From an uncultured Dehalococcoidales bacterium (GTDB taxonomy: Bacteria; Chloroflexota; Dehalococcoidia; GIF9; AB-539-J10): 41,113 nucleotides of DNA. The position numbers were made by a program, and so were the translations under genes. Positions 5,396-40,031 of this stretch are shown one piece after another. The notes under the pieces were generated by a model, which did not search any database, had not been told where the DNA came from, and saw only the letters and a list, made by a program, of their open reading frames with translations. Numbering within the stretch: position 1 is the stretch's first letter; every line of letters begins with the position of its first letter. The stretch covers positions 1 to 41,113 of the forward strand of contig CAZPDE010000002.1 in assembly GCA_964585315.1 (NCBI GenBank). Direction: 5' to 3'.

Positions 5396-5460
5396 GGTCA
5401 CCCCAAAAGGGGGGTTTTGCCGGAGATGAAATGGCATTAATAAAAAGAAGGAGGTAGAAC

Positions 5461-5679
5461 ATGCGAGAAAAGGTAGAAGCAGCCCTGGCTCAAATAAGAC
5501 CTGCTTTGATGGCAGACGGAGGTGGTGTTGAGTTAGTGGATGTGAATGAAGGTGTGGTCACAGTGAGACTGATAGGTGCTTGCGGCGGCTGCCCTATGGC
5601 AGCTATGACCTTGCAGCATGGAATCGAGCGGGTGCTTAAGGAACAGGTGCCTGAGGTTAAGGAAGTGATTGCTGTTTAG
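5461..5679 (+). CDS. NifU C-terminal-domain (Nfu-type) Fe-S cluster protein
   Basis: 72 aa with IRPALMADGGGVELVDV...GACGGCPMA (CxxC) as in Nfu/NifU-C. Confidence 0.8.
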   Translation: MREKVEAALAQIRPALMADGGGVELVDVNEGVVTVRLIGACGGCPMAAMTLQHGIERVLKEQVPEVKEVIAV

Positions 5680-8602: not shown

Positions 8603-8787
8603 GGGGAACTTAGCCTAAAGGGGGGCGCTCAGATGATTATAGATAGACCCGAGGCTCGGTTAATATTTATGTCAATGGCGATAATGTGCGCGCTCTCCAT
8701 GGCTTGGCTACCTCTCTAAAAGCGCGAGGGATGAGGTGCTTGTTCTGCCTGCTGCTGCTGGGTAAACTGACTTATAGGTGGTAATAG

Positions 8788-21324: not shown

Positions 21325-21715
21325 TCAGCGTTCAATCCCTTCCCGGGCTTCAACACCCTCCTGATAGTAATGCTTAAGCTCCACCATCTCCGTTGCCAGG
21401 CCTGCTGCAGCAATAACCTCAGGTGGTGCATATCGCCCAGTAAAGACCACCTCCACGCTATCTGGCTTACACGCTATTATCTCCAGCATGTCCTTCAGCG
21501 AGACAGGGTGAAAATAATGGGCAGTGGTGATTTTATCCAAGACGATAAGGTAATACTCATCAGAGAATATCGCCTCTTGAGCCCTGGCCAGCCCCTCCTG
21601 CACTATTTGGACATCCTCTTTTCCTGGGTTTTGGAACTGTGGTTTTGCCCTTGGAATTTCCCGTGTAAACTTGAATGTACCCTTTCCCTAGAGGGGGTGA
21701 CTCTGTTGTCCTCAT
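21325..21715 (-). pseudogene. cobO: Decayed paralog of cob(I)yrinic acid a,c-diamide adenosyltransferase (internal deletion plus frameshift)
   Basis: The N-terminal frame gives MRTTESPPLGKGYIQVYTGNSKGKTT. After about 21636..21640 the homologous sequence continues in another frame (FQNPGKEDVQIVQEGLARAQEAIF...[41 protein letters not shown]). About 52 codons present in the intact copy (24133..24681) are missing. Confidence 0.75.
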
Positions 21716-21720
21716 TATGA

Positions 21721-22398
21721 TTATCTCCTTTTTACAGTCAGTTTGTATTTGGAAATATCCAGGAACCAATATCGTTCTCTAGACACCGGTTTGCTATCAA
21801 GAATTTCTATCCGTTTTCTAAATATCGGGCCATCAATAACTAATGTATGGTACTCTCCCAGCTCACCACAGGGATGGATTTTTGAGCCAGTGCTATGATG
21901 CAATTCATCCATAAAATTATCGTCTATCTGTCGCCCTATCCATTTCTCATCAAGTGCCTCTGCCTTGACACAGACCACCAATGCCTCGAATCCTGCCTTA
22001 ATGAAGTCCTGCAATATTTGCTCCGGTTTGCTTTCCCACAAAGGCAATATAAGGTCAATTCCCAGTTCGGCACACATTTTCTCATCCCACTCCTTACCCT
22101 CTAGAAGATCAATATCCCCGGTTACAATAGCCTCTACCCCCTTCGGCTTCAATTCATTTATCGCTTCCTTGAATCCCTTTTCATAGGTATCCCAGGTAAC
22201 CCTCTTTTGGATTAGGGGAACCCCGATAGCCGCCGCCTGGCTAGCTATCAACTCAGGGGCAACCTCGTGAGACATAGACTTTTTGCCATCAGCACTGATC
22301 AAATTCAGCAAATGTGAAACTTGTACTCCGTTTGAGATTGCCTTATAGTAAGCTAGGCAACTATCTTTGCCTCCACTCCATGAACTTATTGCTTGCAT
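21721..22398 (-). CDS. PP-loop ATP pyrophosphatase of the Dph6/MJ0570-like family
   Basis: MQAISSWSGGKDSCLAYYKA carries the SGGKDS PP-loop. The ATG at 22398 is preferred over 22428. Confidence 0.65.
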   Translation of the reverse strand: MQAISSWSGGKDSCLAYYKAISNGVQVSHLLNLISADGKKSMSHEVAPELIASQAAAIGVPLIQKRVTWDTYEKGFKEAINELKPKGVEAIVTGDIDLLEGKEWDEKMCAELGIDLILPLWESKPEQILQDFIKAGFEALVVCVKAEALDEKWIGRQIDDNFMDELHHSTGSKIHPCGELGEYHTLVIDGPIFRKRIEILDSKPVSRERYWFLDISKYKLTVKRR

Positions 22399-22450
22399 GT
22401 TCTCGCTCCTTTCACCATGAAACTTCATTAATAATCCTTATAAGTGAGAC

Positions 22451-23197
22451 CTATATGCTTGCTCTCCTTAGCACAACCACGCATCCCAAAAAGAAGGCCA
22501 GCCCAAAGCCCACAATAGCCAGCAGAGACAGCCATGGGAAAGGCTGGCTTAGAGATGCTGCTCGGAGGCACAAGCTACAATGCGTTAGGGGAAGAATATA
22601 CAGGGCAAGCTTAAGTCCTCCGGGTAATTCGCTTAAGGGAAAGAAGGTGCCACAGAGAAAGGTCATTGGCAATAACACCAGGCTGCTGAAGATAGCCATG
22701 TCTTCATGTGACTTCGCCAAGAGCGCAGCAAAGACTCCCAAGAAGGCGAAGATGAAACAGGTGAACACCAGGGTTATAACAAAGAGAGGGCTAAGATGTA
22801 GTGTGGACGACATCAGGGAGGCTATTATCAGGAAAGCTATTGCACTAATGAGTCCCCGTATCACACCGACCGAAGCCTTGCCCAGAATTAGCGAAAGGTG
22901 ACTAACAGGAGATATCAAGCATTCATCAAAACTCTTGCAAAAAAGGCGATCTACATTGAGCTTCACTCCGGCACCGTTAAAACTAGCGGTCATCGCGGTG
23001 AGGGCAACTATCCCAGGTATCACGAACTCAAGGTAACTTGTGCCCACGATATTGATTCCCCGTCCCAACCCCCAGCCAAAAGCTACTAAGCAAAGTAAGG
23101 GACTGACTATAGTGGTGATAAGAAATCGCCACCACTGGCGCCTTAAAATCCTTAACTCTGGCCAAAGAATGGCGTAGAAATCCATCTTATTCATCAC
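22451..23197 (-). CDS. ABC-2-type transporter permease
   Basis: 248 aa with about six TM helices. It overlaps the upstream ATPase gene by 11 nt, a typical ABC-2 exporter arrangement. Confidence 0.7.
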   Translation of the reverse strand: MMNKMDFYAILWPELRILRRQWWRFLITTIVSPLLCLVAFGWGLGRGINIVGTSYLEFVIPGIVALTAMTASFNGAGVKLNVDRLFCKSFDECLISPVSHLSLILGKASVGVIRGLISAIAFLIIASLMSSTLHLSPLFVITLVFTCFIFAFLGVFAALLAKSHEDMAIFSSLVLLPMTFLCGTFFPLSELPGGLKLALYILPLTHCSLCLRAASLSQPFPWLSLLAIVGFGLAFFLGCVVVLRRASI

Positions 23198-24041
23198 CTA
23201 CCTTTTGTCCAGTCAGCTCCACAAAGACATCCTCCAGATTCGACTCTCGTATAATGATAGTCTTAACATCGGGAGGTAGCCTCTGAACATAATCCTTTGC
23301 TGCTGCTCTATCTGGGGAATAGTGATAGTGGGTCTCCTTATTGTTAGAGAGTGTTTCTACCGCGACTAGCCCCAGGCGCAGGCGAAGTTCCAGAGGTCTG
23401 CCTAGTGCAATTAGTTGTCCCTGGTGAATTATTCCTACTCGCTGACAGAGAGCTTCAGCCTCTTCAATGTAATGGGTAGTGAGAAAAATGGTGGCTCCAT
23501 CTGAGTTCATGTTGCGTATCATATCCCAGACATGGCGTCGACTCTGGGCATCTATTCCTGCCGTGGGCTCATCGAGGAAAAGTATTCTGGGGCGATGTAA
23601 GAGAGCACGAGCAATCATCACCCGCCTTTTCATCCCTTCCGAGAGCTTATTAACCAATTGGTCAGCCTGCTTAGTTAGTTCTACATAGTCAAGCAACTCG
23701 GCGATGCGCCTCTGTCGCTCATCCGACTTCAAGTGATGTAAGCGCGCGTGCAATTCCAAAATCTCCCACACGGTCAACTCCCAATCCAGGCTCAGGTGCT
23801 GCTGTACTACCCCAAACTCGTTTCTCACCCGCATTGGCTTCTTCACCACATCAAAGCCATTTATACTGGCATGTCCTGAAGTCGGCTTAGTCAAAGTGGT
23901 CAGGATGCGAATAGCCGTGGTCTTACCAGCACCGTTGGGCCCCAGAAATCCGAACATCTCTCCCTGATGCACTTCCAGGTTCAGGTTATTAACTGCCTTG
24001 ATTTCACCATATGTCTTGGTTAGCCTTTCCGTTACAATCAT
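23187..24041 (-). CDS. ABC transporter ATP-binding protein (DrrA/ABC-2 exporter type)
   Basis: Walker A GPNGAGKTT, signature LSEGMKRRVMIA, Walker B LFLDEPTAGID. Confidence 0.85.
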   Translation of the reverse strand: MIVTERLTKTYGEIKAVNNLNLEVHQGEMFGFLGPNGAGKTTAIRILTTLTKPTSGHASINGFDVVKKPMRVRNEFGVVQQHLSLDWELTVWEILELHARLHHLKSDERQRRIAELLDYVELTKQADQLVNKLSEGMKRRVMIARALLHRPRILFLDEPTAGIDAQSRRHVWDMIRNMNSDGATIFLTTHYIEEAEALCQRVGIIHQGQLIALGRPLELRLRLGLVAVETLSNNKETHYHYSPDRAAAKDYVQRLPPDVKTIIIRESNLEDVFVELTGQKVGDE

Positions 24042-24132
24042 CCTGATTATCTTACCATAGCCAAATCACCGAAGTGGGAATCTGCTCCAGCTAAGTTGCC
24101 CGTGGTGCTTTCCTGAAGTCCTCCTGCCGCTA

Positions 24133-24681
24133 TCAGCGTTCGATCCCATCCCGTGCTTGAACCCCTTTCTGAAAATAATGTTTGACCTCCACCATCTCTG
24201 TCACCAGGTCTGCTGCGGCAATAAGTTCTGGCGGCGCATACCGTCCAGTAAAGACCACCTCTACGCCGTTTGGCTTGGAATGTATTATCTCTAGCATTTC
24301 CTCCAGTGAGATCAAGTGAAAATAATGACTGGTAACAATCTCATCAAAGATAATGATGTCATATTTGCCGGAAAACATAGCCTCTTTTGCCTTCGCTAAA
24401 CCTTCTTGTGCCATCTGAACATCTTCTTCTCGGGGAGGATTCTGGACATGAATTAAAGTATCTTTTCCGTATTGCTCAATAGTGATATATGGCTGCACCA
24501 TTTTCGTTGCCTCCAGTTCACCATAACGCTGACCCTTCATGAATTGCCCAATGTATGTCTTTAGTCCTCGCCCTGTAGCTCGGAAGGCCAAACCCAAAGC
24601 AGCTGTAGTCTTACCTTTGGAGTTTCCGGTGTAGACTTGAACATAGCCCTTCCCCAACTCGCGCGATTCTTTTTGTATCAT
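24133..24681 (-). CDS. cobO: Cob(I)yrinic acid a,c-diamide / cob(I)alamin adenosyltransferase (CobO/BtuR type)
   Basis: 182 aa with GKGYVQVYTGNSKGKTTAALGLAFRA (P-loop), FDEI, and VVFTGRYAPPELIAAADLVTEMVEVKH. Confidence 0.85.
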   Translation of the reverse strand: MIQKESRELGKGYVQVYTGNSKGKTTAALGLAFRATGRGLKTYIGQFMKGQRYGELEATKMVQPYITIEQYGKDTLIHVQNPPREEDVQMAQEGLAKAKEAMFSGKYDIIIFDEIVTSHYFHLISLEEMLEIIHSKPNGVEVVFTGRYAPPELIAAADLVTEMVEVKHYFQKGVQARDGIER

Positions 24682-24774
24682 AACAACCCCCCTTTCGTTG
24701 AGTTTGCTTGCTAAATTCTGAGCAAATTGATTGCCTTCACTCGACCAAGCTAGCGCATAAATGTGCCTACTTGC

Positions 24775-25512
24775 TCACTTTGCCTCCTGTAATTCATAGC
24801 TCCAGAAAAATCGCTTCTTGAATCTCTCTAATATTGCTATTGTCTTTGTGCCGAAGAGCCTCAAGAAAATAACATTTGCCAGCGAATGGGAGGCATCCCA
24901 CCAGACAGCGTTGAGCAAAGTGAGCAGGTATGTCTTCATCGTAAGAGGATAGATAAAAGCTGCCCAGAACCAGATATTTATTATCAATCCATAAAGCATG
25001 CCCCATATAGCTCCGAATACTACCAGCAGCATAATCCTGGATCGGTCGGAATGTACAGGGATTCGCTTAAGATAGCCCGCCGAAACTCCTACCAGCCCCC
25101 AGGTGAAGATTTGGTATACTGTCCACGGGCCATGTCCCAGAAAGAGATTGGATATGAAAGTAGTTAAAGCAGCCACCATAAATCCGGCAACAGGCCCGAA
25201 GACATAGCCAGAGCAAATGATAAAGAAAGTGCATGGCTGAAAGTTCATTAAGGCAGCAAAAGGAAGCCTCGAGACTGCCGAGATGGTTCCCAGCATGGAA
25301 ACGAGAACTATTTGCTTGGCCCCGGTAGCAGCAGTCTCAAATTCAAAAAGGAAGGCAAGAATGGTCAGAGCAAAAAAGATGAGGACTATCAACCCCCAGT
25401 TCAGGATGCCCATATTGGGGTCAAGGAATCCCCCGCGAAATCGGAGCGGCGCTATATAGCAATAGACTCCGAGAAATAATATTAGCGCCAGAAAGATATA
25501 GCTTTTCCTCAT
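24775..25512 (-). CDS. Probable ECF-transporter S (substrate-capture) component
   Basis: 245-aa polytopic membrane protein with about six or seven TM segments. It lies immediately downstream of, and translationally overlaps, the fused EcfA gene. The family call rests on position and hydrophobicity. Confidence 0.55.
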   Translation of the reverse strand: MRKSYIFLALILFLGVYCYIAPLRFRGGFLDPNMGILNWGLIVLIFFALTILAFLFEFETAATGAKQIVLVSMLGTISAVSRLPFAALMNFQPCTFFIICSGYVFGPVAGFMVAALTTFISNLFLGHGPWTVYQIFTWGLVGVSAGYLKRIPVHSDRSRIMLLVVFGAIWGMLYGLIINIWFWAAFIYPLTMKTYLLTLLNAVWWDASHSLANVIFLRLFGTKTIAILERFKKRFFWSYELQEAK

Positions 25513-27185
25513 GGTAGTAAGTCTAGTGCTTCATCGACTGTTAACACATCTCCAGGAACACCATATTTTTCAAAAGCTTGAATGAGGCGGTTTATCTGAG
25601 GTGAAAACAGGAGAGCTTTAGAGAGGACCTCCTGTTTGTCGCCGTCCACTATAATTCTCCCCTCACTCATTAGTATCACCCTATCGGCATGTTCAGCCAC
25701 TGTCTCCACATCATGGGTTACCACGACCACGGCATTGCCCATAGCTCTATATTCGTTCAAGAAGGTCATCAACTGGCTCTTCAATCTATAATCCATTCCT
25801 CTGGTAGGTTCATCTAAAATTAGAATCTTCGGCTGAGTGACAATAACTGAGGCTAAAGCCACCCGTTGCTTCTCTCCTCCGCTCAAATAGCGAGGGTAGT
25901 GGCTCCGGTATTTGCTAAGCTTGAACCTTTCCAGCATTTCTTCAACCCTTGATGTTATCTCTACCCCATCAAGCCCCAAATTCTTCAGGGTAAAGGCGAT
26001 TTCTTCCTCAACTGTATCAGCAAAGAGGTGGTCATTGGGGTCCTGGAAAACAAAACCAACTTTCTTGGACAGTTCAGCAATGGTAACCTTTCGGGTATCA
26101 ACTCCATCTATATTCACAGACCCCTTCGCTGGCTTTAAAAGCCCGTTAAAATGCTTAACCAGAGTCGTTTTGCCCGAGGCATTACGGCCCATAATAGCAA
26201 CGAACTCACCCTCATGTACCTCCAGACTTACATCCTTTAGTGCGGTGACCTCCCTGGAGTAAGCGTACCAGAGCTTTTCTACTTCGACTATTATTGGTTT
26301 GCTATCACCTTTTTTATCGTGCCGGGGTACTTGCACTGAAGCCCCTTGGAAAACTGCATCAAGCGCAATTCTACCTTCTTTAACTGTCAGCGGAGTCTCA
26401 TCTATGCTGATGCCCTTGCGCCTTATTCCTTGAGTTAGCTTGATTATGGGAGGTATGCCTATGCCAATTTCTGCCGACTTTCCATCACTTAGGATATGTC
26501 TTGGGTCTCCATCAGCAACGATTTCTCCCTGGGATATTATTATCAGCCTGTCGACATACTGAGTTACTCTATCCAATCGGTGCTCAACCAGTATTACTGC
26601 TAGCCCCAACTCATCGTTCAAGCGTTCCACTATCGAAATCACCTCCTCAGCACCTTTGGGGTCTAGCTCAGAGGTTGGCTCATCCAGCACTAGAATGCCA
26701 GGATGCAGCGCCAGAACAGAGGCTATGGCGACCTTCTGCTTCTCCCCACCAGACAATTCATGCACTTGCCTGTGGCGTAGAGCAGAAATGCCCAGCGTAT
26801 CCAGAGACTCTTCCAGCCTCTTGGCAATGAGGCTTTTGGGGAAAGCCAGATTCTCCATGCCAAATGCGATTTCCCTTTCTACATCTATGGCAACGAGCTG
26901 GTTCTCCGGGTCTTGAAATACCATTCCCACCTTGGTAGCTAACTCCTTAGTAGAATGTCTTATTGCATCAATACCTTGAACCTCCACCTTGCCTGCTACT
27001 CTCCCCCCGTAGAAATGAGGTATCAGTCCATTGAGACAACGGCACAGGCTTGATTTTCCTCCACCTGATGGTCCAGTTACCAGCACGAACTCCCCGTCCC
27101 GAACTTGAAGGTTTATATTCTTCAGCGCTGGCTTTTCAGCATCGCCGTAGTAGAAAGTAAAATCCTCAATCTTAATCAAGGTCAA
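25509..27185 (-). CDS. ecfA: Fused double ECF-transporter ATPase (EcfA-EcfA', CbiO-like)
   Basis: Two ABC cassettes: GPSGGGKSS / LSGGEKQKVAIA / LVLDEPTSELD and GRNASGKTT / LSGGEKQRVALA / LILDEPTRGMD. Confidence 0.88.
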   Translation of the reverse strand: MTLIKIEDFTFYYGDAEKPALKNINLQVRDGEFVLVTGPSGGGKSSLCRCLNGLIPHFYGGRVAGKVEVQGIDAIRHSTKELATKVGMVFQDPENQLVAIDVEREIAFGMENLAFPKSLIAKRLEESLDTLGISALRHRQVHELSGGEKQKVAIASVLALHPGILVLDEPTSELDPKGAEEVISIVERLNDELGLAVILVEHRLDRVTQYVDRLIIISQGEIVADGDPRHILSDGKSAEIGIGIPPIIKLTQGIRRKGISIDETPLTVKEGRIALDAVFQGASVQVPRHDKKGDSKPIIVEVEKLWYAYSREVTALKDVSLEVHEGEFVAIMGRNASGKTTLVKHFNGLLKPAKGSVNIDGVDTRKVTIAELSKKVGFVFQDPNDHLFADTVEEEIAFTLKNLGLDGVEITSRVEEMLERFKLSKYRSHYPRYLSGGEKQRVALASVIVTQPKILILDEPTRGMDYRLKSQLMTFLNEYRAMGNAVVVVTHDVETVAEHADRVILMSEGRIIVDGDKQEVLSKALLFSPQINRLIQAFEKYGVPGDVLTVDEALDLLP

Positions 27186-28098
27186 TCCTCCTCTTTAAGA
27201 AAGCCATAGGCACCAATGTCACCATAAGAAGCAATAGCATAGCCAGCCAGAAGCTCTCCATGCCACCAAGGTTTATTGCCTCCAGCGAGGGGTAATATTG
27301 ATAGCTCCCATATCCAGAAGTACGTATGGCAATAGCGAGGACGAGAGGTAAAACTACGAAGGCTAAAGTGATGATGTCAAATTGGCTGAACCTTATTTCT
27401 TTGTAAAATGTTCTGGCATTCCCTTGCCCAAAAGCCCTTGATTCCATCGCCTCGGCAACCTGAACGGTGCGGTCTAAGCAGTTGGATAAAAGGGGGATCA
27501 AAATCGCAGCGCGCTTTTTAGCTTTCTGCAGCGCTCTCCCTTTATCCATTTCCACGCCTCGCGTTCTGTGCACATCAGTTAGACGCTCAATATCGGCGAT
27601 TAGGGTGGGAACAAATCGGGTGGAGAGCGAAGTTGCCAGCACCGATTTGTAAGGCAGCTTCATTCTTATCATCGCCAGCATTATATCATCGGGGTGGACA
27701 GTAAAATTGAGCATGGCGAAGGCAGATATGATAGTCAGCAACCGCAGCGCCATCATAGACCCAAAGAATATAGCCTCCAAGGTTACATTGAGTGGACCTA
27801 GTGCCGGAATTTCAAAGGGAGCTTCAAGCAAAACATGAGCGCCCTGGCTAACCACCAATGTATTTATAAAAACTATGAAGATTCCAAGGTAGAGTACTAA
27901 TTTTATGGAAGAAGCCCATTCCTTCCATATCTTTGCTATTGCTACCAGAGGCAGCGTCGAAAGAAAAAGGAGGAAAATATACAGGGGATTGTCAAAAATC
28001 AAGGCAAGAACCAAAATATTGGCAACCCATAGCAACTTACAAACGGGATTGAGTCGGTGAACCGGAGTGCCCTTGTCCTCGAACCTGAAACTTATCAT
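27172..28098 (-). CDS. ecfT: ECF-transporter T component (CbiQ family)
   Basis: 308 aa, multi-TM. The cytoplasmic coupling helices carry Arg motifs (LSTRFVPTL, VHRTRGVE). It overlaps both neighbours. Confidence 0.8.
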   Translation of the reverse strand: MISFRFEDKGTPVHRLNPVCKLLWVANILVLALIFDNPLYIFLLFLSTLPLVAIAKIWKEWASSIKLVLYLGIFIVFINTLVVSQGAHVLLEAPFEIPALGPLNVTLEAIFFGSMMALRLLTIISAFAMLNFTVHPDDIMLAMIRMKLPYKSVLATSLSTRFVPTLIADIERLTDVHRTRGVEMDKGRALQKAKKRAAILIPLLSNCLDRTVQVAEAMESRAFGQGNARTFYKEIRFSQFDIITLAFVVLPLVLAIAIRTSGYGSYQYYPSLEAINLGGMESFWLAMLLLLMVTLVPMAFLKRRIDLD

Positions 28099-29036
28099 AG
28101 AGGTATCCTGATTATCCCTCCATCCGCTATCACCACTGCAGAAGCATATTGAATCTGGGAATATTGGTTGACTAGAGCATCTGCGGCATTCTTTACTCCG
28201 GCCTCGTCTGTGCCAGACACCATCCAGACAACGGCCTCACAACTCCAGCTCCCTTTCGGATTCCAGATATTCTGAGTTGCTTGAATCACGCCACTCCCAG
28301 CTCCATATTCTGCCACAGCCTTACCCTTAGAGTTGAACGCCTGCAATTTACCATCCTTAAAGTGAGCAAATAAGCCAATCCGGTCATAGACCTCGTTGAG
28401 TTCTGCGATAAGCTCAAAATCCATGGTACACATAAGAATCAGGTTAGAATGCTCTTTCTCCTCATCTGATAGCTCGGCTGCATTAGTAACAGAAATCTCC
28501 TTCACTCCAAGTTCCTCGAGCTTGCTCTTAAGCCTTCCCGCTTCTCCTTCGAGGTTTCCGGAATAGACTACCACGGTAGGGGAGGCTTTCCCCCTATAAC
28601 CATGTAAGAATGGCTCAGGCAAATCACCTATGATGGCATTGCAGCCATGCATGATATAACTATAATCGTGGTAGTCCCAATGCTGCATATCACCAGACTG
28701 AAGTTTATAGCCTGAAGCGAATACATTGGCCATGATGCCATTGATGTAATAGAACCAATACTCTGTACTGGAACCGTAGAGGCCATCTATGCCCGCAACA
28801 TAGGTTCCTGCCTTCCTGAGTTCAGCCACCTGCCCCAGTGCTTTCTCAGCAGTAGTTCCTGCCATCACTGTGGCTGTTCTATCAAATATGAGCTCAGCGC
28901 CGAAGTCTCTGGTGGCTACCACTCTGACAGATATCTGCTCTGATGTTGGGGGAGGAGTGGTAGCACAGCCAGCCAACATGCCAGTAAGGACGAAAAGTAC
29001 AATAGCAACGGTTAGTATCTTCTTCATTTTTACCAT
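28095..29036 (-). CDS. Lipoprotein with a DUF4430 (transcobalamin-like C-terminal/beta) domain
   Basis: Lipobox LTGMLAGC. ISVRVVATRDFGAE...TEYWFYYINGIMANVFASGYKLQSGDMQHWDYHDY matches the DUF4430 pattern (W.Y.vNG....ga..Y.l..GD...W.Y). The C-terminal ~180 aa were not recognised. Confidence 0.7.
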   Translation of the reverse strand: MVKMKKILTVAIVLFVLTGMLAGCATTPPPTSEQISVRVVATRDFGAELIFDRTATVMAGTTAEKALGQVAELRKAGTYVAGIDGLYGSSTEYWFYYINGIMANVFASGYKLQSGDMQHWDYHDYSYIMHGCNAIIGDLPEPFLHGYRGKASPTVVVYSGNLEGEAGRLKSKLEELGVKEISVTNAAELSDEEKEHSNLILMCTMDFELIAELNEVYDRIGLFAHFKDGKLQAFNSKGKAVAEYGAGSGVIQATQNIWNPKGSWSCEAVVWMVSGTDEAGVKNAADALVNQYSQIQYASAVVIADGGIIRIPL

Positions 29037-29060
29037 TCTCCCTTTTTCTTTTCTGACAGC

Positions 29061-31595
29061 TTATGTTCTGCCACGACGCCGTCCCAGGATGAAAATTATG
29101 ATAGCTGTAATTGCTAAAATACCGGCCACAATGCTTCCAATGAACGCCCAGAATGCCCAATCAAGCGACCCCGTATCTTCAGGAGGAACCGTCTCCTCAA
29201 CGGTAAATTCAGCAGTTTGTCCATCTACTTCAACCTCATAACTCCCGGCGTTTTCCCTGCTGACAGTAAAGGTTACTAACCGTTCTTCACCGGGAGTAAG
29301 TATCAGTTCCTCTACCGTCTCGACACCACCGCCTATTTTCAGAGACAGGCTATAGCTTCCCTCAGTCTCACCGGTGTTAGCCACAAGTACTGTAACAGTG
29401 ACATCTTCCCCCGGTCTTACTACTTCAGGAGTGACATCCAGGCTCTTAACTGTGAATGCTGCCGACGATGAGCTTGTCGTCCCACCCAGAATAGTGAATT
29501 GGGTGAAGTGTCTTACTCTAGCAGTAACAGTATTTTCAGCAATATCCGCCACGCTGTTTTCCAGGATAGCCCATTCGTTCTTGCTGGTATCAAAATAGGC
29601 TATCTTAAAATCCTCCTCTGTCACACCTTTCCAATCCGGTGATGTTACCTTGACGATGTCCGCGACATTGACGCTTCCATCGCAGTTCACATCCCATGCC
29701 ATGCTATCAGCCACAGGGACTTCATCATAATGTAAAGTCAAGGTAATCGGAGGCTCGAAAGTGGCTTTCTCAGGACCAATGTCATAGGTCAGCCCGATGG
29801 GACAGACATCTGGTGATACCGAAGGTGATTCGGTAACAGCTTCAATAGTTATTTGCTCCGGCGGTGTGCCCGATACAGTGAGAGCAATAGTTCTTTCGGG
29901 CAGCTTCAAATCCACTTTTTTGTCCGCTGAGGCAAGCTCTACTAGCTCCAGAACCCTGCCGCTAGCGTCAATTTTCCCTGTCAGTTCAATCACTCCCGGA
30001 GGCAGTCCTGCCTCCACTCGGAATGACCAGGCTCGGCGCGCCTGATTTCCTTCTATGTCTCTTACCCTTACCTCGATGCGGTGCTCGCTATTGGCCAGGG
30101 GTATTGCCGGAGTATAACTTGCTCGCGTCCCGGTGATTATAGCCTCTACCAATGTGCTATCTATCTTGACACTGACTGACGCCGTATCAATACCTGAGCC
30201 AGTGTCAGAATAAGCAGCGCTGATTGTTGGTGTTCCTGTATCCACCGTTGCTCCTGAAGGTGGGCTCAGGTTGCTGATGGTGGGAGGTGTAGTATCCGAA
30301 GCGGTTTCGGTATCCACAATAAAGCTCCATGCTTTGTAAGCCTTGTTCCCAGCCTGGTCATAAACGGTGAGTTGAGCACTCCTGGTGCCATCTGACAGAG
30401 CAGTGGTCGGAATATAGCTTATTCCTGTCTCGGTGACCGTGGTTTCTGAAGTTACATCAGCGCCATCTACCCTTAATGTCACTGAAGAACTGTCAATACC
30501 TGACAGAGCATCAGAATAAGCAGCGCTTATCGTTGGCTTTCCTGTATCCACGGTTGCCCCTGAAGATGGCTCTAAATCGCTTATCTTTGGGGATGAATTA
30601 TCCTTGACTATCTTCGTCGGCCAGTATTTCCCGACCAGGGGCGGCAGGATGTAAGATGTCATCCACTCAGGATTGTTATCAACGCCTTCTATCCAGTTGA
30701 AGCCACCGTCAGCTCGCTGGAGGCTCAGGGCGTGCTCTACCGGGTTGTTCCCGTTCTTTGTCCAATGTTCACCTGTAGGGTCTTGCCCGCAGGCACGAAT
30801 GGCAGCAATAGCACGAGCATCTGAGGCTACATCCGACTTGTCAGACATTCCAGCACAGGGAAACCCTCCATCATCAAGCTGCTCAGATTTAATAAAGTCC
30901 AGCCCATCTTGAATTGCCCGTGAGGATGGGCTTTGCCCGGCAGCAATCAGAGCCATGATAGCGTTAGCTGTATCGCATACATCACCAGCTCCTGCCGTAG
31001 TGCAGCCCCAGCCGCCGGCATCACTCTGGTTGGCTAAAATATAATTCTTACTCGCTTGGATGATTTCTGAACTGCGGCTTTCCCCCGCTCCAATTAAAGC
31101 AATGATACCCCAGAAATCATCGTTGATGAGCCCGGGCTTGCCAATCTGCTCTCCGTCAAACATGGCTTTTAGCCCACCTACAAAGTTCACCCCCCCGAAA
31201 TCCCACGGGTTTTCCCCGGCGGCAACAATGGCAGAAAGGTAATACTCGTAAGGTAGAGCCTCTTTCGTTTCCGGCGGCTGCGCCTCAAATGTAGCCTTGC
31301 TGCGAATGTAATCAACCACGGAGTTTCCACCCTTGCTATAGCTGTGGGTGTCTCTCCCACCGGCGTCAATAGCTACTATGGCATAGCAGCACATCTCTAC
31401 ATTCGATCCAATACTGCCATCAACATTCTGGCAGTCCTCTAAGTAATCTAATGCAGCCATTATTCGAGCATCGTTTGTGCTCAGTGGGTAGCTTGCTGCC
31501 AGGACTGGCATCGCCGCTGGCATCAGCAGGGCACAGAGCACCAGGATAACGAGCGGAATCCCCAGTATGCCTTTTAGCTTAGTTAGTTTTTCCAA
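29061..31595 (-). CDS. 844-aa membrane-anchored surface protein: prenyltransferase/terpene-cyclase-like alpha/alpha toroid, 2 Ig-like repeats, single dockerin-like Ca loop, CARDB-like domain, C-terminal TM
   Basis: Signal peptide MEKLTKLKGILGIPLVILV.... Recurrent QxxDGS(I/W)G-type repeats (NVDGSIG, DAGGWG, DDGGFP, ADGGFNW). Two units of about 95 aa (P.IS.L.P.SGATVDTG.PTISAAYSD..SGID..SV...). Then WDVNCDGSVNVADIV, CARDB-like TPEVVRPGEDVTVTVLVANTGETEGSY, and the tail IVAGILAITAIIIFILGRRRGRT. TTG start with an AAGGGGG Shine-Dalgarno sequence. Confidence 0.7.
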   Translation of the reverse strand: MEKLTKLKGILGIPLVILVLCALLMPAAMPVLAASYPLSTNDARIMAALDYLEDCQNVDGSIGSNVEMCCYAIVAIDAGGRDTHSYSKGGNSVVDYIRSKATFEAQPPETKEALPYEYYLSAIVAAGENPWDFGGVNFVGGLKAMFDGEQIGKPGLINDDFWGIIALIGAGESRSSEIIQASKNYILANQSDAGGWGCTTAGAGDVCDTANAIMALIAAGQSPSSRAIQDGLDFIKSEQLDDGGFPCAGMSDKSDVASDARAIAAIRACGQDPTGEHWTKNGNNPVEHALSLQRADGGFNWIEGVDNNPEWMTSYILPPLVGKYWPTKIVKDNSSPKISDLEPSSGATVDTGKPTISAAYSDALSGIDSSSVTLRVDGADVTSETTVTETGISYIPTTALSDGTRSAQLTVYDQAGNKAYKAWSFIVDTETASDTTPPTISNLSPPSGATVDTGTPTISAAYSDTGSGIDTASVSVKIDSTLVEAIITGTRASYTPAIPLANSEHRIEVRVRDIEGNQARRAWSFRVEAGLPPGVIELTGKIDASGRVLELVELASADKKVDLKLPERTIALTVSGTPPEQITIEAVTESPSVSPDVCPIGLTYDIGPEKATFEPPITLTLHYDEVPVADSMAWDVNCDGSVNVADIVKVTSPDWKGVTEEDFKIAYFDTSKNEWAILENSVADIAENTVTARVRHFTQFTILGGTTSSSSAAFTVKSLDVTPEVVRPGEDVTVTVLVANTGETEGSYSLSLKIGGGVETVEELILTPGEERLVTFTVSRENAGSYEVEVDGQTAEFTVEETVPPEDTGSLDWAFWAFIGSIVAGILAITAIIIFILGRRRGRT

Positions 31596-31653
31596 TTTCT
31601 ATTCCCCCTTTTCTTAAGAGAAGGCATAAAGCTCATCAGGCACTTTTATAAGA

Positions 31654-31710
31654 GGCACAAAGTTTGCTTAGAGCCAGCCCCTTTGTGCCTCTGTGCCTCT
31701 GTATCTTTGC
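31654..31710 (-). promoter_or_regulatory. Conserved 57-nt leader/trailer element with hairpin (copy A)
   Basis: On the minus strand: gcaaagatacagaggcacagaggcacaaaggggctggctctaagcaaactttgtgcc. GGCACAAAG and CTTTGTGCC form a 9-bp stem. A second copy lies at 34989..35045. Confidence 0.5.
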
Positions 31711-31716
31711 CCATTC

Positions 31717-32073
31717 TTATTTAGACCTGACCTTGTTAATAAGGCTGCTGAGCATACGCTCAATCTCCCTGCTCGATTCGTATATTGCTTGAAAAGCTGC
31801 ATCAGGGATAAAGGCTAAGTTTTGAGCAATCGTAAGCTGGGTTTGCAATTCATAAAGTGCCCCCATAGATATTTGTAGAAAACGGACATAATCATTGGTA
31901 GATTTACGACCATATCCCTCAGCAATATTGCTTGGCACCGATACAGCGCTTCGCCTGATTTGAGAACTAAGACCATAAAGTTCGTCCTTTGGAAATTGCG
32001 CTGCCACCCTGTAAACCCCTGTCACCAGATCCATGGCTTTCTGCCAGACTACCAAGTCTCTATATGTTTTCAT
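31717..32073 (-). CDS. Four-helix-bundle protein (23S rRNA intervening-sequence protein / Avd-like family)
   Basis: 118 aa. YRDLVVWQKAMDLV...FPKDELYGLSSQIRRSAVSVPSNIAEGYGR...Y..FL.IS.GSL.EL.TQL is the family signature. Confidence 0.85.
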   Translation of the reverse strand: MKTYRDLVVWQKAMDLVTGVYRVAAQFPKDELYGLSSQIRRSAVSVPSNIAEGYGRKSTNDYVRFLQISMGALYELQTQLTIAQNLAFIPDAAFQAIYESSREIERMLSSLINKVRSK

Positions 32074-32076
32074 CTC

Positions 32077-32156
32077 TCTGTACTTTTGCTACTTTGTGCC
32101 TTTGTGCCTTTGTGCCTTTGTGCCTCTGTGCCTCTGTATCTTTGCTCCTTTGTGCC
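32077..32156. repeat. Ten-unit 8-nt tandem array (plus-strand TTTGTGCC/TCTGTGCC; minus-strand GGCACAAA/GGCACAGA)
   Basis: Read directly: tctgtact tttgctac tttgtgcc x4 tctgtgcc tctgtatc tttgctcc tttgtgcc. It fills the whole spacer between the stop at 32160 and the ATG at 32073. Shorter arrays occur at 31682..31713 and 35017..35056. Confidence 0.85.
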
Positions 32157-32159
32157 TCC

Positions 32160-32333
32160 CTATTCACCCCAGTGAATGCCGATTATCACTATGTCCTGGG
32201 TATCAATGGTCCCGTCATTGTTAACATCCTCCCGAATCCAGCCCTGCGTTCCTTCCTCACCCCAGTGCATACCCACCAGGACAATATCCTGAGTGTCAAT
32301 CTCACCATCACAGTTCACATCCCAGTCAGGGCA
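32160..32333 (-). repeat. Dockerin-coding dispersed repeat, copy 1
   Basis: About 175 nt collinear with 35060..35233. My hand alignment gives about 20 mismatches and no indels. Confidence 0.85.
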
Positions 32334-34964
32334 GGTTGTGGAGCCGAATGCCCAAACCTTCCCCTCCGCAAGGGTAAACACGCTGCCATCAGCAACCGCC
32401 GGGGAGGAACCTCCGTGGTCGTAGTGCCATATCTCGCTACCGGTGGCGGCATCCAGAGCATAAATGCCCTGGTAGTCAAAATTCTCGCCACCGGGTTTGC
32501 CTACGAACACCTTGCCATCGGCTACTGCCACCGAGAGCGTCCAGTTGCCCACACCAAGGCTTGTCTCTGTCCATATCGGAGAACCATCCGAGGCATCAAA
32601 ACAGTAGGTATCGCCACCACCACTCCAGCCGCCGCAGACATAGACCCTGCCATCGGCATAAGCCGGGGTAGTATCAGTAGCCAGAATGGCAACAGGCCCC
32701 CAGACGAGACTGCCATTGGAAGCATCCAGTGCAACTAATTCCCCGAAACCGCCGAAGTTATAGGTAGTGATAAATACCTTGCCATCGGCAATACAGGCAG
32801 AGCCGCAGGTGTCCCAACCATAAGTTCCATCGGCCAGGCCATCGGAATGCCATATCTCTTCACCTGTATCTATGTCCACGCAGTAGACATGCCCGCCGAC
32901 ATATTCCCAACTGGTGAGATAAACCTTGCCGGCGGCATAGGCAGGGGTGCCCTGGGCATAACCAGGCACATCGAAGAACCACTCCTGGTCACCTGTAGTC
33001 TCATTCACACAGTAATAGCAGCCAGGTTTATCCCAGACGCCGGCAACGACCTTGCCGTCAGCAACCATAGGACCGCCGTCAACCGCACCTAAAGGAAATG
33101 TCCACAATGAAGGACCGCCGTCCTCGCTGAAGCAGTATAGCTGTGCTCCTGAGATGAACACCCTGCCGTCGTGATATGCCGGGGATGCCCACGACCCCAA
33201 ACAAGCGCCGCCCACGATGGGCTCGCTCCACAGGGTCGTGCCATTGGACTGGCTCAGGCAGGTAAGCGCGTCCCCGCAGTTCACGAAAACCTTGCCGTTG
33301 GCAACAACTGGAGATGAGCTAATTGCTGCGCCGATATTATCGCTCTCCCAGGCTAACTCATTTGTATCCGGTGCACCCGATAAGGAGCATCCGATGTGTG
33401 CCACATCCCCATGAAACTGCTCCCAGTCAGCCATTATCCCAAAATTAGCGGTAACCTCTTCATCCGAGTTTATGAGTATAGTCTCAGGATTCTGCCCGCC
33501 GCTCACGGCGCCGCTCCAGCCACTAAAGGCATAACCGCCATTTTGGTAGGCGGTTAAAGTTACCGTAGTACCGGGCTCATACTGGTTATTCGGAGTTCCG
33601 GGGTCCTGGTCGGGGGGATCGAGTATGGCTATGCCACCGCCCGCCGGGGCGATATTCACGGTGAGCGTATAGTAAACCGTAGGTTCTTCTACACCTGTGC
33701 CGGTGAGAGGAACTTCAACCATACCTTCATCGGGGTCGTTCGATGGTATGGATAAAACAGCTGATTTGCCGCCGAGCGCTGTCGGGCTGAACACCACCTC
33801 AAGGGTGGCTGAGCTATCCGGGACTATGGTCTGCCCTGAGCAGCTATCATTCTGAATCGAGAACTGGTCGGTATCCGCACCGGTTATGGCTATGGTGCCG
33901 ATAACTAAATCACCCATGCCGTCATTGGCGACGGTTACCGTGACAGGCAAGCTCGATGAGCCGACCTCCACATCGGGGAATTCAATAGATGTTGGGGTAA
34001 CCGTGATGTTGGGGGGAGGCGGAGCGTAGCGGAGGATGAGGCTTGTTTCCATCGCAAAGTCTCCTACGGCGAAGACATCATCAGGGGCACTTCCCCAGAT
34101 GCCGGAAAGGTCCCACATTAGATTGTCGCCCCCCATAAGGCTCCAGACGCTGCCATCATAGTGCATGATGGTGCCATAGTTTTGCCCCGGAGCGAAGACA
34201 TCATCATGGGCGCTCCCCCAGACATCCCGAATGTGCTGTGTTGTGCCGCTGTCCATGGGAGTCCAGGTGCTACCATCGTAGTGCAGAATGGTGCCTGAGC
34301 ATCCTACGGCGAAGACATCACCATGAGCGCTCCCCCAGACATCATTAAGGTTATATGTTGTGCCGCTGTCCATGGTGCTCCAGGCACTGCCATCGTAGTG
34401 CAGAATGGTGCCATTATATCCCGGGGCGAAGACATCGTCAGAGGCACTTCCCCAGACACCGGAAAGGGACTGCGTTGTGCCACTGTCCATGGTGCTCCAG
34501 GCGCTGCCATCGTAATGGAGGATGGTGCCCCAGCCTCCCACAGCGAAGACATCATTGGGGGCGCTTCCACAGACACCACAAATCCACTCCGTTGTGCCGC
34601 TGTCCATGGGAGCCCATGTATTGCCATCGTAATGGAGAATGGTGCCGCAGCTTCCCACAGCGAAGACATCATTGGGAGTGCTCCCCCAGATGTCCTTAAG
34701 GTCCCGTGTTGTGCTGCTGTCCATCTCAGCCCAGGCACTACTGCCATCGTAGTGCAGAATGGTTCCCCTTTCTCCTACGGCGAAGACATCATCGTGGGTA
34801 CTCCCCCAGACACCTCGGAGCGCTTCATCTGTTGTGCCGCTGTCCATGGGAACCCAGACACAATCGTCTGCCTGGACCGGGCTTGCCATCGGCACCAACA
34901 GAGCAAACAGCATCAGAACGGTAAGCAAAACCCCCAGAATTCCTTTTCCTTTAAGTTTTTTCAT
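32160..34964 (-). CDS. 934-aa secreted multidomain protein: 41-aa-repeat propeller, choice-of-anchor-D/ASH-like Ig domain, InlB-B-repeat-like domain, PQQ/BamB-like beta-propeller, C-terminal dockerin
   Basis: Signal peptide MKKLKGKGILGVLLTVLMLFALLVPMASPVQA. About seven units of WGS...DVFAVG..GTILHYDGS.W..MDSGTT. Then ITVTPTSIEFPDVEVGSS..VTVTVANDG.GDLVI. The propeller has repeated DGKVF/DGRVY...G.LWS blades. It ends CPDWDVNCDGEIDTQDIVLVGMHWGEEGTQGWIREDVNNDGTIDTQDIVIIGIHWGE. Confidence 0.75.
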   Translation of the reverse strand: MKKLKGKGILGVLLTVLMLFALLVPMASPVQADDCVWVPMDSGTTDEALRGVWGSTHDDVFAVGERGTILHYDGSSAWAEMDSSTTRDLKDIWGSTPNDVFAVGSCGTILHYDGNTWAPMDSGTTEWICGVCGSAPNDVFAVGGWGTILHYDGSAWSTMDSGTTQSLSGVWGSASDDVFAPGYNGTILHYDGSAWSTMDSGTTYNLNDVWGSAHGDVFAVGCSGTILHYDGSTWTPMDSGTTQHIRDVWGSAHDDVFAPGQNYGTIMHYDGSVWSLMGGDNLMWDLSGIWGSAPDDVFAVGDFAMETSLILRYAPPPPNITVTPTSIEFPDVEVGSSSLPVTVTVANDGMGDLVIGTIAITGADTDQFSIQNDSCSGQTIVPDSSATLEVVFSPTALGGKSAVLSIPSNDPDEGMVEVPLTGTGVEEPTVYYTLTVNIAPAGGGIAILDPPDQDPGTPNNQYEPGTTVTLTAYQNGGYAFSGWSGAVSGGQNPETILINSDEEVTANFGIMADWEQFHGDVAHIGCSLSGAPDTNELAWESDNIGAAISSSPVVANGKVFVNCGDALTCLSQSNGTTLWSEPIVGGACLGSWASPAYHDGRVFISGAQLYCFSEDGGPSLWTFPLGAVDGGPMVADGKVVAGVWDKPGCYYCVNETTGDQEWFFDVPGYAQGTPAYAAGKVYLTSWEYVGGHVYCVDIDTGEEIWHSDGLADGTYGWDTCGSACIADGKVFITTYNFGGFGELVALDASNGSLVWGPVAILATDTTPAYADGRVYVCGGWSGGGDTYCFDASDGSPIWTETSLGVGNWTLSVAVADGKVFVGKPGGENFDYQGIYALDAATGSEIWHYDHGGSSPAVADGSVFTLAEGKVWAFGSTTCPDWDVNCDGEIDTQDIVLVGMHWGEEGTQGWIREDVNNDGTIDTQDIVIIGIHWGE
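34064..34862 (-). repeat. Tandem coding repeat of about 123 nt (41 aa) x ~7
   Basis: Recurrent ggcgaagacatcat...gctcccccagac...tgtgccgctgtccatgg...ccatcgtagtgcagaatggtgcc. It creates long stop-free shadow ORFs on both strands. Confidence 0.8.
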
Positions 34965-35059: not shown

Positions 35060-35233
35060 CTACTCCCCCCAGTGAATGCCGATTATCACTATGTCCTGGG
35101 TATCAATGTTTCCGTCACTGTTAACATCCTCTCGAATCCAGCCCGGTGTTCCAGACTCATCCCAGCGCATACCCACCAGGACAATATCCTGGGTGTCAAT
35201 ATCACCATCCTCATTCACATCCCAATCAGGGCA
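35060..35233 (-). repeat. Dockerin-coding dispersed repeat, copy 2
   Basis: See copies 1 and 3. Hand alignment gives about 20 mismatches in ~175 nt to each, with no indels. Confidence 0.85.
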
Positions 35234-37874: not shown

Positions 37875-38390
37875 TTAATACCTTGCCCTCCTTCGCCGCA
37901 AGACGAATACCAGAATTATCACTGCCACTATAGCCACCCCTATCGCCACTAGCAACATCAAGCTTGGCATACCTGATATGTGGATATAGGTTGGCACCTT
38001 TATTCCAGTGCCAATCGCCAGTCCCTCGCCCGGAGGCAAGGAAACTACACAAATGTGAGCCTCATGCTCTCCTGAAGCAATTAACGGTGGCTTAATGCTT
38101 ATCTCTATTGCCTCCTTCCCCTGGGCAGGCAGCACAAATTCCTCGGGTTCTATGGTAAACCAACCTTCATACTTTTCTTCCTCCACATATACCTTATAAT
38201 TGGATTCCTCATTTCCAGTATTGGTGATGCCTAACATGGCAGTGGCAGAACCTCCACGAGAAACCTCCATATTAAGCTTCTCAGGAGATACTCCCAATCC
38301 TATTGCCAGTGCTGGAGCTGTAACCAGGAACAAGGACAATGCAACGAGCAACAATAGAAAGTTACCGACTATCTTTCTCGACATTTTCAC
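37875..38390 (-). CDS. Small signal-peptide protein with a beta-sandwich-like ectodomain and a C-terminal TM anchor plus RRRR tail
   Basis: 171 aa: MKMSRKIVGNFLLLLVALSLFLVTAPALA, then GVSPEKLNMEVSRGGSATAMLGITNTGNEESNYKVYVE..., ending LMLLVAIGVAIVAVIILVFVLRRRRARY. The family is not firmly recognised. Confidence 0.5.
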   Translation of the reverse strand: MKMSRKIVGNFLLLLVALSLFLVTAPALAIGLGVSPEKLNMEVSRGGSATAMLGITNTGNEESNYKVYVEEEKYEGWFTIEPEEFVLPAQGKEAIEISIKPPLIASGEHEAHICVVSLPPGEGLAIGTGIKVPTYIHISGMPSLMLLVAIGVAIVAVIILVFVLRRRRARY

Positions 38391-39857: not shown

Positions 39858-40031
39858 CTACTCACCCCAGTGCATGCCGATTATCACTATGTCCTGAGTA
39901 TCAATGTCTCCGTCATTGTTAACATCCTCTCTTATCCAGCCCTGTGCGCCACTCTCGCCCCAGTGCATACCCACCAGGACAATATCCTGGGTGTCAATAT
40001 CGCCATCCTCATTCACATCCCAATTGGGGTA
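39858..40031 (-). repeat. Dockerin-coding dispersed repeat, copy 3
   Basis: Collinear with 32160..32333 and 35060..35233. Hand alignment to copy 2 gives about 20 mismatches in ~173 nt with no indels. Confidence 0.85.

Follow-up and report, generated by a model that had tools for sequence, protein, structure and literature searches.

The minus-strand operon at positions 24133-31595 of contig CAZPDE010000002.1, from an uncultured Dehalococcoidales bacterium, probably encodes a dedicated energy-coupling factor (ECF) importer of corrinoids that is extended by an extracellular capture stage, a reading to which we give a probability of about 0.7. The window analysed is the whole 41,113-nucleotide (nt) stretch of that contig, and the operon is the feature under study within it. 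Judged from its sequence, the six-gene system very probably imports corrinoids (cobalamin, cobinamide or related cobamides), and on balance we favour the view that its two surface proteins, an alpha/alpha-toroid protein and a DUF4430 lipoprotein, form a joint two-protein corrinoid binder. The evidence lies in the closest solved relative of the substrate-binding membrane subunit (S component), in the modelled fold of the lipoprotein, in the adjoining cobO gene, and in related loci where gene cassettes of the same order are placed under cobalamin riboswitches.

Organization of the operon

Six co-directional, tightly packed genes occupy the interval. In order of transcription, with the toroid domain given after the protein that contains it, they are as follows (aa, amino acids).

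29061-31595, minus strand: surface toroid protein, 844 aa (open reading frame (ORF), Pfam domains, scan for transmembrane helices)
30591-31505, minus strand: toroid domain, aa 31-335 of the 844-aa protein (AlphaFold2 model, Foldseek)
28095-29036, minus strand: DUF4430 lipoprotein, 313 aa (Pfam, AlphaFold2, Foldseek)
27172-28098, minus strand: EcfT, transmembrane coupling component, 308 aa (Pfam CbiQ)
25509-27185, minus strand: fused EcfA-EcfA' ATPase, 558 aa (two ABC_tran domains, NCBIfam)
24775-25512, minus strand: CbrT-type S component, 245 aa (Pfam ECF_trnsprt, match to 6FNP_A)
24133-24681, minus strand: CobA/CobO ATP:corrinoid adenosyltransferase, 182 aa (PF02572, PRK05986)

The first two genes are 24 nt apart, the next three junctions overlap by 4, 14 and 4 nt, and cobO follows after a space of 93 nt. 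The genes for the ECF components overlap one another and are translationally coupled. The toroid gene has a TTG start preceded by a Shine-Dalgarno-like AAGGGGG sequence. The co-directional minus-strand block is wider than these six genes, running from 21325 to the end of the window at 41113. In a scan of the window, the numbers of promoter-like and terminator-like sites were not above those in shuffled sequence, and the operon boundaries are therefore drawn from gene spacing only.

Domains were called with Pfam and NCBIfam, and membrane helices with a hydropathy scan. An original prediction, made from the sequence without database searches, had spoken of seven genes but listed six; the interval contains six, and these have the coordinates, strand and spacing that it gave. 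Its domain assignments are borne out by Pfam and NCBIfam, and the motifs that it read in the toroid protein (DGSIG, GGWG, DGGFP and DGGFNW) are all present in the 844-aa translation. It had also described that protein as membrane-anchored, and the scan places a C-terminal helix at aa 811-829.

A CbrT-type ECF transporter

The transporter is, by sequence, of the dedicated-module (group I) ECF type, with T, both A and A', and S in one operon. EcfT matches Pfam CbiQ (E 3e-27, aa 11-227), and the two halves of the ATPase fusion match the NCBIfam models ECF_ATPase_1 (500 bits against a cutoff of 315, aa 4-270) and ECF_ATPase_2 (472 bits against 330, aa 301-554). The S component matches Pfam ECF_trnsprt (E 1.3e-13). 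When compared with solved structures, the single S sequence matches 6FNP_A, the CbrT subunit of ECF-CbrT, with E 8.6e-11 over aa 67-238, and a profile of 15 family members extends this to E 2.1e-15 over residues 11-181 of the 182 in the chain. The next S component, 4HZU_S, is at E ~0.07, leaving CbrT as the only significant solved relative. The claim of a B12-type ECF transporter, which the original prediction had based on context, gains support from this relationship. The window S component differs from CbrT (182 aa) in a conserved N-terminal extension of ~60 aa that carries two extra hydrophobic helices, and in which, over a set of 15 homologs, residues P22, P32 and W39 do not vary.

ECF-CbrT of Lactobacillus delbrueckii (PDB 6FNP; Santos et al. 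2018) takes up cobalamin and cobinamide in an ATP-dependent manner, hemin does not compete, and cbrT adjoins an adenosyltransferase gene, pduO (PMC5997447). CbrT had been predicted by Rodionov et al. 2009, as cited in PMC5997447. The window likewise has its S gene beside a corrinoid adenosyltransferase gene, here cobO, whose product matches PF02572 (E 2e-61, 207.5 bits, 170 of 172 profile positions) and NCBIfam PRK05986 (187.9 bits against a cutoff of 185), with the P-loop GNSKGKTT in its translation. The two systems differ in that CbrT is a group II S component sharing an ECF module encoded elsewhere, whereas the window has its own T and fused A-A', and in that no surface protein of the toroid or DUF4430 kind took part in the L. 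delbrueckii system as it was characterised.

The Pfam name CbiQ, together with several NCBIfam matches named as cobalt transporter ATP-binding subunits, could be taken to indicate a cobalt or nickel transporter of the CbiMNQO/NikMNQO kind. These names are however generic for ECF T and A components, and the cobalt-specific equivalogs score below their cutoffs (ECF_T_CbiQ, 53 against 112 bits; PRK13652, 410 against 476). The S component matches generic ECF S families and CbrT, with no metal-type S family among the matches listed. Metal transport was rejected on the S-component family and the sub-cutoff equivalog scores; we consider it very improbable, and effectively refuted by the family assignment of the S component.

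Surface proteins with transcobalamin-like parts

The 313-aa lipoprotein has an LAGC lipobox and a DUF4430/SLBB beta-grasp domain at aa ~35-125 (Pfam DUF4430 E 1.7e-12, aa 60-123). Its AlphaFold2 model has a predicted local distance difference test score (pLDDT) of 90.3, and the best PDB match to the model found by Foldseek is 5NO0, the beta domain of human transcobalamin, with E 5e-6 and a target-normalised template modelling score (TMt) of 0.73. Further matches are 2BB5, 4KKI and 2PMV (entries for transcobalamin, haptocorrin and intrinsic factor), and 3U7Z, a DUF4430 structure from R. gnavus. The DUF4430 domain as modelled thus has the transcobalamin beta-domain fold. Searches of the PDB with the sequence, whether single or as a profile, gave nothing useful, and the link to transcobalamin is therefore visible only through the fold search.

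A second, C-terminal alpha/beta domain of the lipoprotein (aa ~150-313; 28095-28590) is confidently modelled, and Foldseek finds no convincing fold match for it; the BcsB, flavodoxin-like and glycoside hydrolase N-terminal domains that it returned are poor, and were rejected with a root-mean-square deviation of 14-17 Å or E>0.01. This domain is kept in 54 of the 87 sources searched. An exhaustive search at E<=1e-10 and 50% identity gave ~500 representatives for the lipoprotein family, and the match covers the full two-domain length in most of the best 150 listed.

The 844-aa protein begins with a signal-like helix found in the hydropathy scan, followed by Prenyltrans/SQHop_cyclase repeats (aa 160-303), immunoglobulin (Ig)-like Big_13 and Big_5 domains, a stretch with no domain assignment, CARDB, and the C-terminal membrane helix. 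The model of aa 31-335 has pLDDT 95.7 and forms an alpha/alpha toroid of ~12-13 helices. All of its top fold matches are alpha/alpha toroids, those to terpene cyclases and to the beta subunits of prenyltransferases coming first (E 3.5e-8, query-normalised template modelling score, TMq, up to 0.69). The toroid and DUF4430 modules lie in two genes here and not in one polypeptide. In a transcobalamin-like corrinoid binder divided between two proteins, the 844-aa protein is the candidate for the alpha half.

Related loci and cobalamin riboswitches

The S-component profile was run against 185,579 species genomes and gave 80 loci, all ORFs of which were translated and searched with hidden Markov models (HMMs) built from the window proteins. 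Most of these loci (numbered with the prefix L) belong to Dehalococcoidia, and the other hosts include Peptococcaceae, Syntrophomonadaceae, Desulfoscipio geothermicus DSM 3669, Thermoplasmatota and Methanofastidiosum; the closest S component, at 86% identity, is in a metagenome-assembled genome labelled Deltaproteobacteria CG03 (L007). A T-AA' cassette is present in 65 loci, in 52 of which the gene directly upstream of EcfT encodes a DUF4430 protein, and the gene order DUF4430-T-AA'-S recurs across loci. As in the window, cobO adjoins the cassette in L013, L026 and L052. The Dehalococcoidia locus L013 has the same propeller-toroid-DUF4430-T-AA'-S order as the window (the propeller gene being described below), with cobO ~0.7 kb farther downstream. 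The 128 ORFs scanned just downstream of S genes are heterogeneous and include genes of the CobT (DBI_PRT), CobD/CbiB, CobN and BtuF-like Peripla_BP_2 kinds; no heme oxygenase or heme-degrading family is among the 25 families listed for these flanking ORFs.

In six loci an Rfam Cobalamin riboswitch of 94-121 bits lies immediately upstream of the first binder gene. Their S components are 41-64% identical to that of the window, and the hosts are outside the Dehalococcoidia, being Firmicutes where named.

L001, riboswitch at 5273-5558 (106 bits), followed by DUF4430-T-AA'-S
L009, riboswitch at 2645-2921 (99.5 bits), followed by DUF4430-T-AA'-S
L011, riboswitch at 3921-4110 (109.8 bits), followed by a 1138-aa propeller and DUF4430 protein, then S
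L083, riboswitch at 493-680 (116.5 bits), followed by a 1021-aa toroid, DUF4430 and S-layer homology (SLH) protein, then DUF4430-T-AA'-S
L086, tandem pair of riboswitches (120 and 121 bits), followed by a 1204-aa DUF4430 protein, then T-AA'-S
L085, riboswitch at 8779-8946 (94 bits), followed by a DUF4430-toroid gene pair located after T-AA'-S

The window itself has no cobalamin riboswitch at the Rfam gathering threshold anywhere along its length, and a permissive scan (E<=10) of 24000-32400, which takes in the operon and its leader, gave only chance-level matches (E>=2). This agrees with the original prediction, in which no upstream cobalamin riboswitch had been recognised. Profiles built from the riboswitches that were found and used with nhmmer recovered every Rfam match and a partial one in L014, and gave nothing in the remaining loci. 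Since there is no riboswitch in the window, the substrate assignment here rests on homology and on the adjacency of cobO.

A riboswitch of another class, that for the molybdenum/tungsten cofactor (Moco; 71.7 bits), is present at one locus: it occupies 9999-10124 of L028 (Dehalococcoidaceae), ~1.3 kb downstream of the S gene. As far as can be told it is unrelated to the cassette.

Association of the toroid and DUF4430 genes

That the two surface proteins act together is argued most strongly by genetic evidence: adjacency of their genes, riboswitch control of toroid genes, and recurrent fusions. Of the 45 loci with enough upstream sequence to be informative, 31 have a toroid gene as the immediate upstream neighbour of the DUF4430 gene, and four more (L026, L030, L034 and L036) have it one ORF farther up. 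In L085 the riboswitch directly controls the DUF4430-toroid pair. Single proteins in which a toroid is followed by DUF4430 include P0127 (Bathyarchaeia), P0157, P0162 (Paceibacterota), and the L024 and L083 proteins; DUF4430 is placed in these at about residue 330-390, after the N-terminal toroid, which is the order and spacing of transcobalamin. The joint role that the original prediction had proposed for the two surface proteins is supported by these patterns.

Alternative readings

Several observations weigh against a corrinoid importer with a two-protein capture stage. The toroid is nearest, in sequence and in fold, to squalene-hopene cyclases, drimenyl-diphosphate synthase, MstE and prenyltransferase beta subunits, and transcobalamin is not among its top 50 fold matches with Foldseek. 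An hhalign comparison of the toroid with the single human transcobalamin sequence (verified as identical to 7QBF_A) is weak, with P 0.0035 and a probability of 9%. The 41-kb window has no gene for a B12-dependent enzyme. In the Rfam searches no cobalamin riboswitch came up in the window or in 14 Dehalococcoidia-type loci (L004, L013, L015, L017, L018, L020-L023 and L025-L029), so that within this lineage there is no direct regulatory link to B12. Lastly, the one system of this five-gene layout to have been studied experimentally, that of L. sakei, was reported to show a phenotype of heme uptake (bioRxiv 10.1101/864751).

The absence of a riboswitch from the window is lineage-typical, since the lineage loci also have none, and we do not count it against the corrinoid assignment. 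The comparison of the toroid with transcobalamin, although weak, is colinear over transcobalamin residues 82-291 and pairs the toroid motifs DVCDTA and QxxDGGF with SVDTAA and QTPEGHF/LQDGAF in transcobalamin. The eukaryotic Cobalamin_bind model PF01122 matches four of 40 toroid homologs (best E 1.2e-4) and does not match the window protein. The direct tests of a link between the toroid and the transcobalamin alpha domain are thus weak but congruent, and given the weak hhalign scores a specific alpha-domain homology is not claimed. Of the two surface proteins, the DUF4430 model matches transcobalamin, haptocorrin and intrinsic factor first, whereas the match of the toroid to the alpha domain is weak.

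These comparisons bear on a narrower reading, in which the system imports corrinoids but only the DUF4430 lipoprotein binds them. The toroid would then be co-located or co-regulated and have a surface role of its own, for example in S-layer or envelope structure, in binding another ligand, or as an enzyme acting on isoprenoids. Consistent with this are the resemblance to cyclases and prenyltransferases, the faint similarity to the alpha domain, and the fact that about a third of the cassettes with enough upstream sequence (L001, L009, L054 and L061 among them) have no adjacent toroid gene. It is harder to reconcile with the recurrent fusions in transcobalamin order and with L083 and L085, where toroid-containing genes are directly under a riboswitch. 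An isoprenoid enzyme in particular fits poorly. The position aligned with the DxDD motif of the cyclases, their general acid, is DVCD in the window protein (the register is somewhat ambiguous owing to internal repeats), and DxDD is found there in only about one homolog in three, the rest having DxDN, DxDS, DxNT and similar sequences. There is a single toroid of ~305 aa, in contrast to the two-domain (beta-gamma) architecture of cyclases, and it lies behind a signal sequence with a predicted extracytoplasmic location, whereas a cyclase of this class would reach its lipid substrate from the cytoplasmic or membrane side. A terpene-cyclase role as the conserved function was rejected on these grounds, and enzymatic cyclase activity of the toroid is unlikely as judged from its sequence; we also see no prenyltransferase alpha-subunit-like gene in the window. 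We regard binding by the DUF4430 protein without the toroid as unlikely, and prefer the joint binder.

A second alternative concerns the substrate, and holds that the operon is an importer of heme or another non-corrinoid tetrapyrrole whose surface proteins capture heme, as proposed for L. sakei Lsa1836-1840. Verplaetse et al. describe there an ECF-S, a fused EcfA-A', EcfT, and secreted transcobalamin-beta-like and transcobalamin-alpha-like proteins, the alpha-like protein being also geranylgeranyltransferase-like; automatic annotation gave cobalamin transport and the authors assign heme uptake (bioRxiv 10.1101/864751). Deletion, complementation and reporter-based heme assays are reported as confirming that assignment, and heme was docked into a modelled alpha/beta heterodimer (bioRxiv 10.1101/864751). 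Heme-specific ECF transporters do exist, LhaSTA (PMC7299338) being an example, and a window without a riboswitch would also fit a heme substrate. Against this, six loci have cassettes of the same order under cobalamin riboswitches, cobO adjoins the cassette in the window and in three other loci, and the closest solved S component is CbrT, in a transporter where hemin is no competitor of B12. The families listed for the 128 flanking ORFs, moreover, include CobT, CobD and CobN and none that degrades heme. A heme substrate for the window operon is accordingly quite improbable, and corrinoid import with a joint capture stage remains the preferred reading.

Proposed route of capture and import

A plausible scenario is that the lipid-anchored DUF4430 protein and the membrane-anchored toroid protein are displayed on the cell surface, with the toroid held off the membrane by its Ig/CARDB stalk. 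In the manner of transcobalamin's alpha and beta domains, the two would hold a corrinoid between them, and would then pass it to the CbrT-type S component. By homology to the characterised ECF-CbrT, import would be driven by EcfT and the fused EcfA-A', and CobO, again by homology, would adenosylate the imported corrinoid in the cytoplasm. The two-helix N-terminal extension of the S component and the lipoprotein's C-terminal domain are candidates for parts that serve in the hand-over.

Relationship to known systems

Systems of this kind were predicted between 2007 and 2009 and are already named in databases. Burroughs, Balaji, Iyer and Aravind (2007) described a bacterial transcobalamin-like clade of SLBB domains with signal peptides, predicted to scavenge B12 or its precursors (PMC1796856). 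Its members are associated with alpha/alpha toroids (as N- or C-terminal fusions, or as partners), Ig domains and beta-propellers, have second paralogues in one operon, and are linked to CbiO-like ATPases and CbiQ-like membrane proteins (PMC1796856). The window fits that description point by point, although the 2007 study came before the ECF/CbrT concept and includes no defined S component, no riboswitch survey and no Dehalococcoidia examples (PMC1796856). The novelty that the original prediction implied was overstated, because the idea was already published (PMC1796856; bioRxiv 10.1101/864751). Our literature search turned up no paper in which these bacterial transcobalamin-like proteins are shown to bind corrinoids.

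The five-part layout of Lsa1836-1840, compared from the published description of the operon architecture, is identical to that of the window. The L. sakei surface proteins are however small secreted proteins or lipoproteins, while in the window the toroid protein has Ig/CARDB domains and an anchor of its own, the lipoprotein has an extra C-terminal domain, and cobO is attached. What sets the window lineage apart is the self-anchored toroid with its Ig/CARDB stalk, the two-domain lipoprotein, the extended S component, the attached cobO, and the absence of a riboswitch.

Mammalian transcobalamin, intrinsic factor and haptocorrin sandwich one cobalamin between an alpha6/alpha6 toroid and a beta-grasp domain. 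The window resembles them in the superposition of its DUF4430 model on the beta domain and in the N-to-C order of its relatives' fusions. It differs in that the two halves are separate and separately anchored polypeptides, in that the sequence of the toroid is far nearer to those of terpene cyclases and prenyltransferases than to the transcobalamin alpha domain, and in that delivery would be to an ECF S component, in place of the endocytic receptor used in mammals.

A further comparison is with BtuG and BtuH of Bacteroides, surface B12-binding lipoproteins that capture corrinoids ahead of a membrane transporter. Their families are not known to be related to those of the window, and they feed the TonB-dependent BtuB in a diderm cell and not an ECF transporter. 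BtuG is itself a beta-propeller, and we note that beta-propeller proteins also recur beside cassettes of the window type.

ECF transporters are usually defined by the absence of an extracytoplasmic binding protein, a rule that would be qualified by a widespread ECF subfamily with a two-part transcobalamin-like capture stage. The Dehalococcoidia are noted corrinoid scavengers, being cobamide-dependent through their reductive dehalogenases, so that the cassette may serve them as a main route in the competition for cobamides in sediments and aquifers. These relationships also bear on the proposal that the B12 carriers of animals derived from bacterial proteins with toroid and SLBB domains, and the well-defined soluble ectodomains of the window proteins are good candidates with which to settle the question of heme or B12 as substrate.

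A cohesin-dockerin and beta-propeller block upstream

Upstream of the operon on the same strand are five genes for secreted or surface proteins, each a probable accessory.

32160-34964, minus strand: secreted PQQ_2-type beta-propeller protein, 934 aa, with a double dockerin-like repeat at its end (Pfam)
35060-37675, minus strand: secreted double beta-propeller protein, 871 aa, with a C-terminal dockerin-like repeat (Pfam PQQ_2 E 1.8e-62)
37875-38390, minus strand: Ig-like protein, 171 aa, with a signal peptide and C-terminal membrane anchor (Pfam HYDIN/VesB-like Ig, scan for transmembrane helices)
38492-39682, minus strand: secreted cohesin-domain protein, 396 aa (Pfam Cohesin E 8e-10)
39858-41113, minus strand: second DUF4430 protein, 415+ aa, with propeller-like repeats and a dockerin-like tail

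The second DUF4430 protein (Pfam DUF4430 E 7e-8, aa 189-255) has its 5' end off the window. It and the 934-aa and 871-aa proteins end in near-identical double dockerin-like repeats, with the sequence DVNxDGxIDTQDIV... occurring twice. Homologs of the 934-aa propeller adjoin the cassette in L012, L013, L015 and L037. Strong homologs of the 871-aa propeller lie directly upstream of toroid or DUF4430 genes in L012, L013, L015 and L005, and another is part of the riboswitch-controlled propeller and DUF4430 protein of L011. In 14 loci a homolog of the 171-aa protein is encoded between the toroid gene and the DUF4430 gene. These propeller and Ig-like homologs in other cassettes, together with the L011 fusion, suggest a linkage of the block to corrinoid capture.

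A tentative extension of the proposal, to which we give little weight, is that the corrinoid ECF operon forms the membrane-proximal end of a ~20-kb cohesin-dockerin surface apparatus (21.3-41.1 kb) that scavenges cobamides. The cohesin protein (38492-39682) might be tethered through its C-terminal domain to the Ig-like membrane protein (37875-38390) and display the three dockerin-tailed proteins, namely the two PQQ-type beta-propellers and the DUF4430-propeller protein; the complex would then feed the toroid/DUF4430 pair and the ECF transporter. If this were true, it would be a cellulosome-style assembly devoted to scavenging of a cofactor, the cobamide, and not to degradation of polysaccharides.

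We also note a lone dockerin-like calcium-loop motif, WDVNCDGSVNVADIV, in the stalk of the 844-aa toroid protein (aa ~637-650; 29600-29700), which is similar to one half of the double repeat with which the upstream propeller proteins end.

Other neighbouring genes

Between the 934-aa propeller gene and the toroid gene lies a 118-aa '23S rRNA intervening sequence protein' (31717-32073, minus strand; PF05635, bAvd-like). A ~31-nt direct repeat, GCAAAGATACAGAGGCACAGAGGCACAAAGG, borders the gene on each side (region 31680-32150), and additional GGCACAAA units are present upstream of it. The gene and its repeats look like a small cassette inserted into the leader of the operon. A related gene also breaks up a resistance-nodulation-division (RND) operon in L001.

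Downstream of the operon, a second cobO-like gene (21325-21769, minus strand) is split across two overlapping ORFs. The 92-aa ORF at 21325-21603 corresponds to the C-terminal half of PF02572 (E 1e-25), and the 69-aa ORF at 21560-21769, matched by the cobO HMM, is presumably the N-terminal part. This split gene is a frameshifted pseudogene or reflects a sequencing error.

Two further sets of genes lie within 21721-24041 (minus strand), downstream of the intact cobO. One is a gene for a Dph6-like PP-loop ATPase (PF01902, 'diphthamide synthase'), homologs of which are within a few kb of the S gene in six loci (L007, L023, L030, L036, L040 and L042). The other is an ABC-2 exporter gene pair (23187-24041 and 22451-23197), which recurs in L030.

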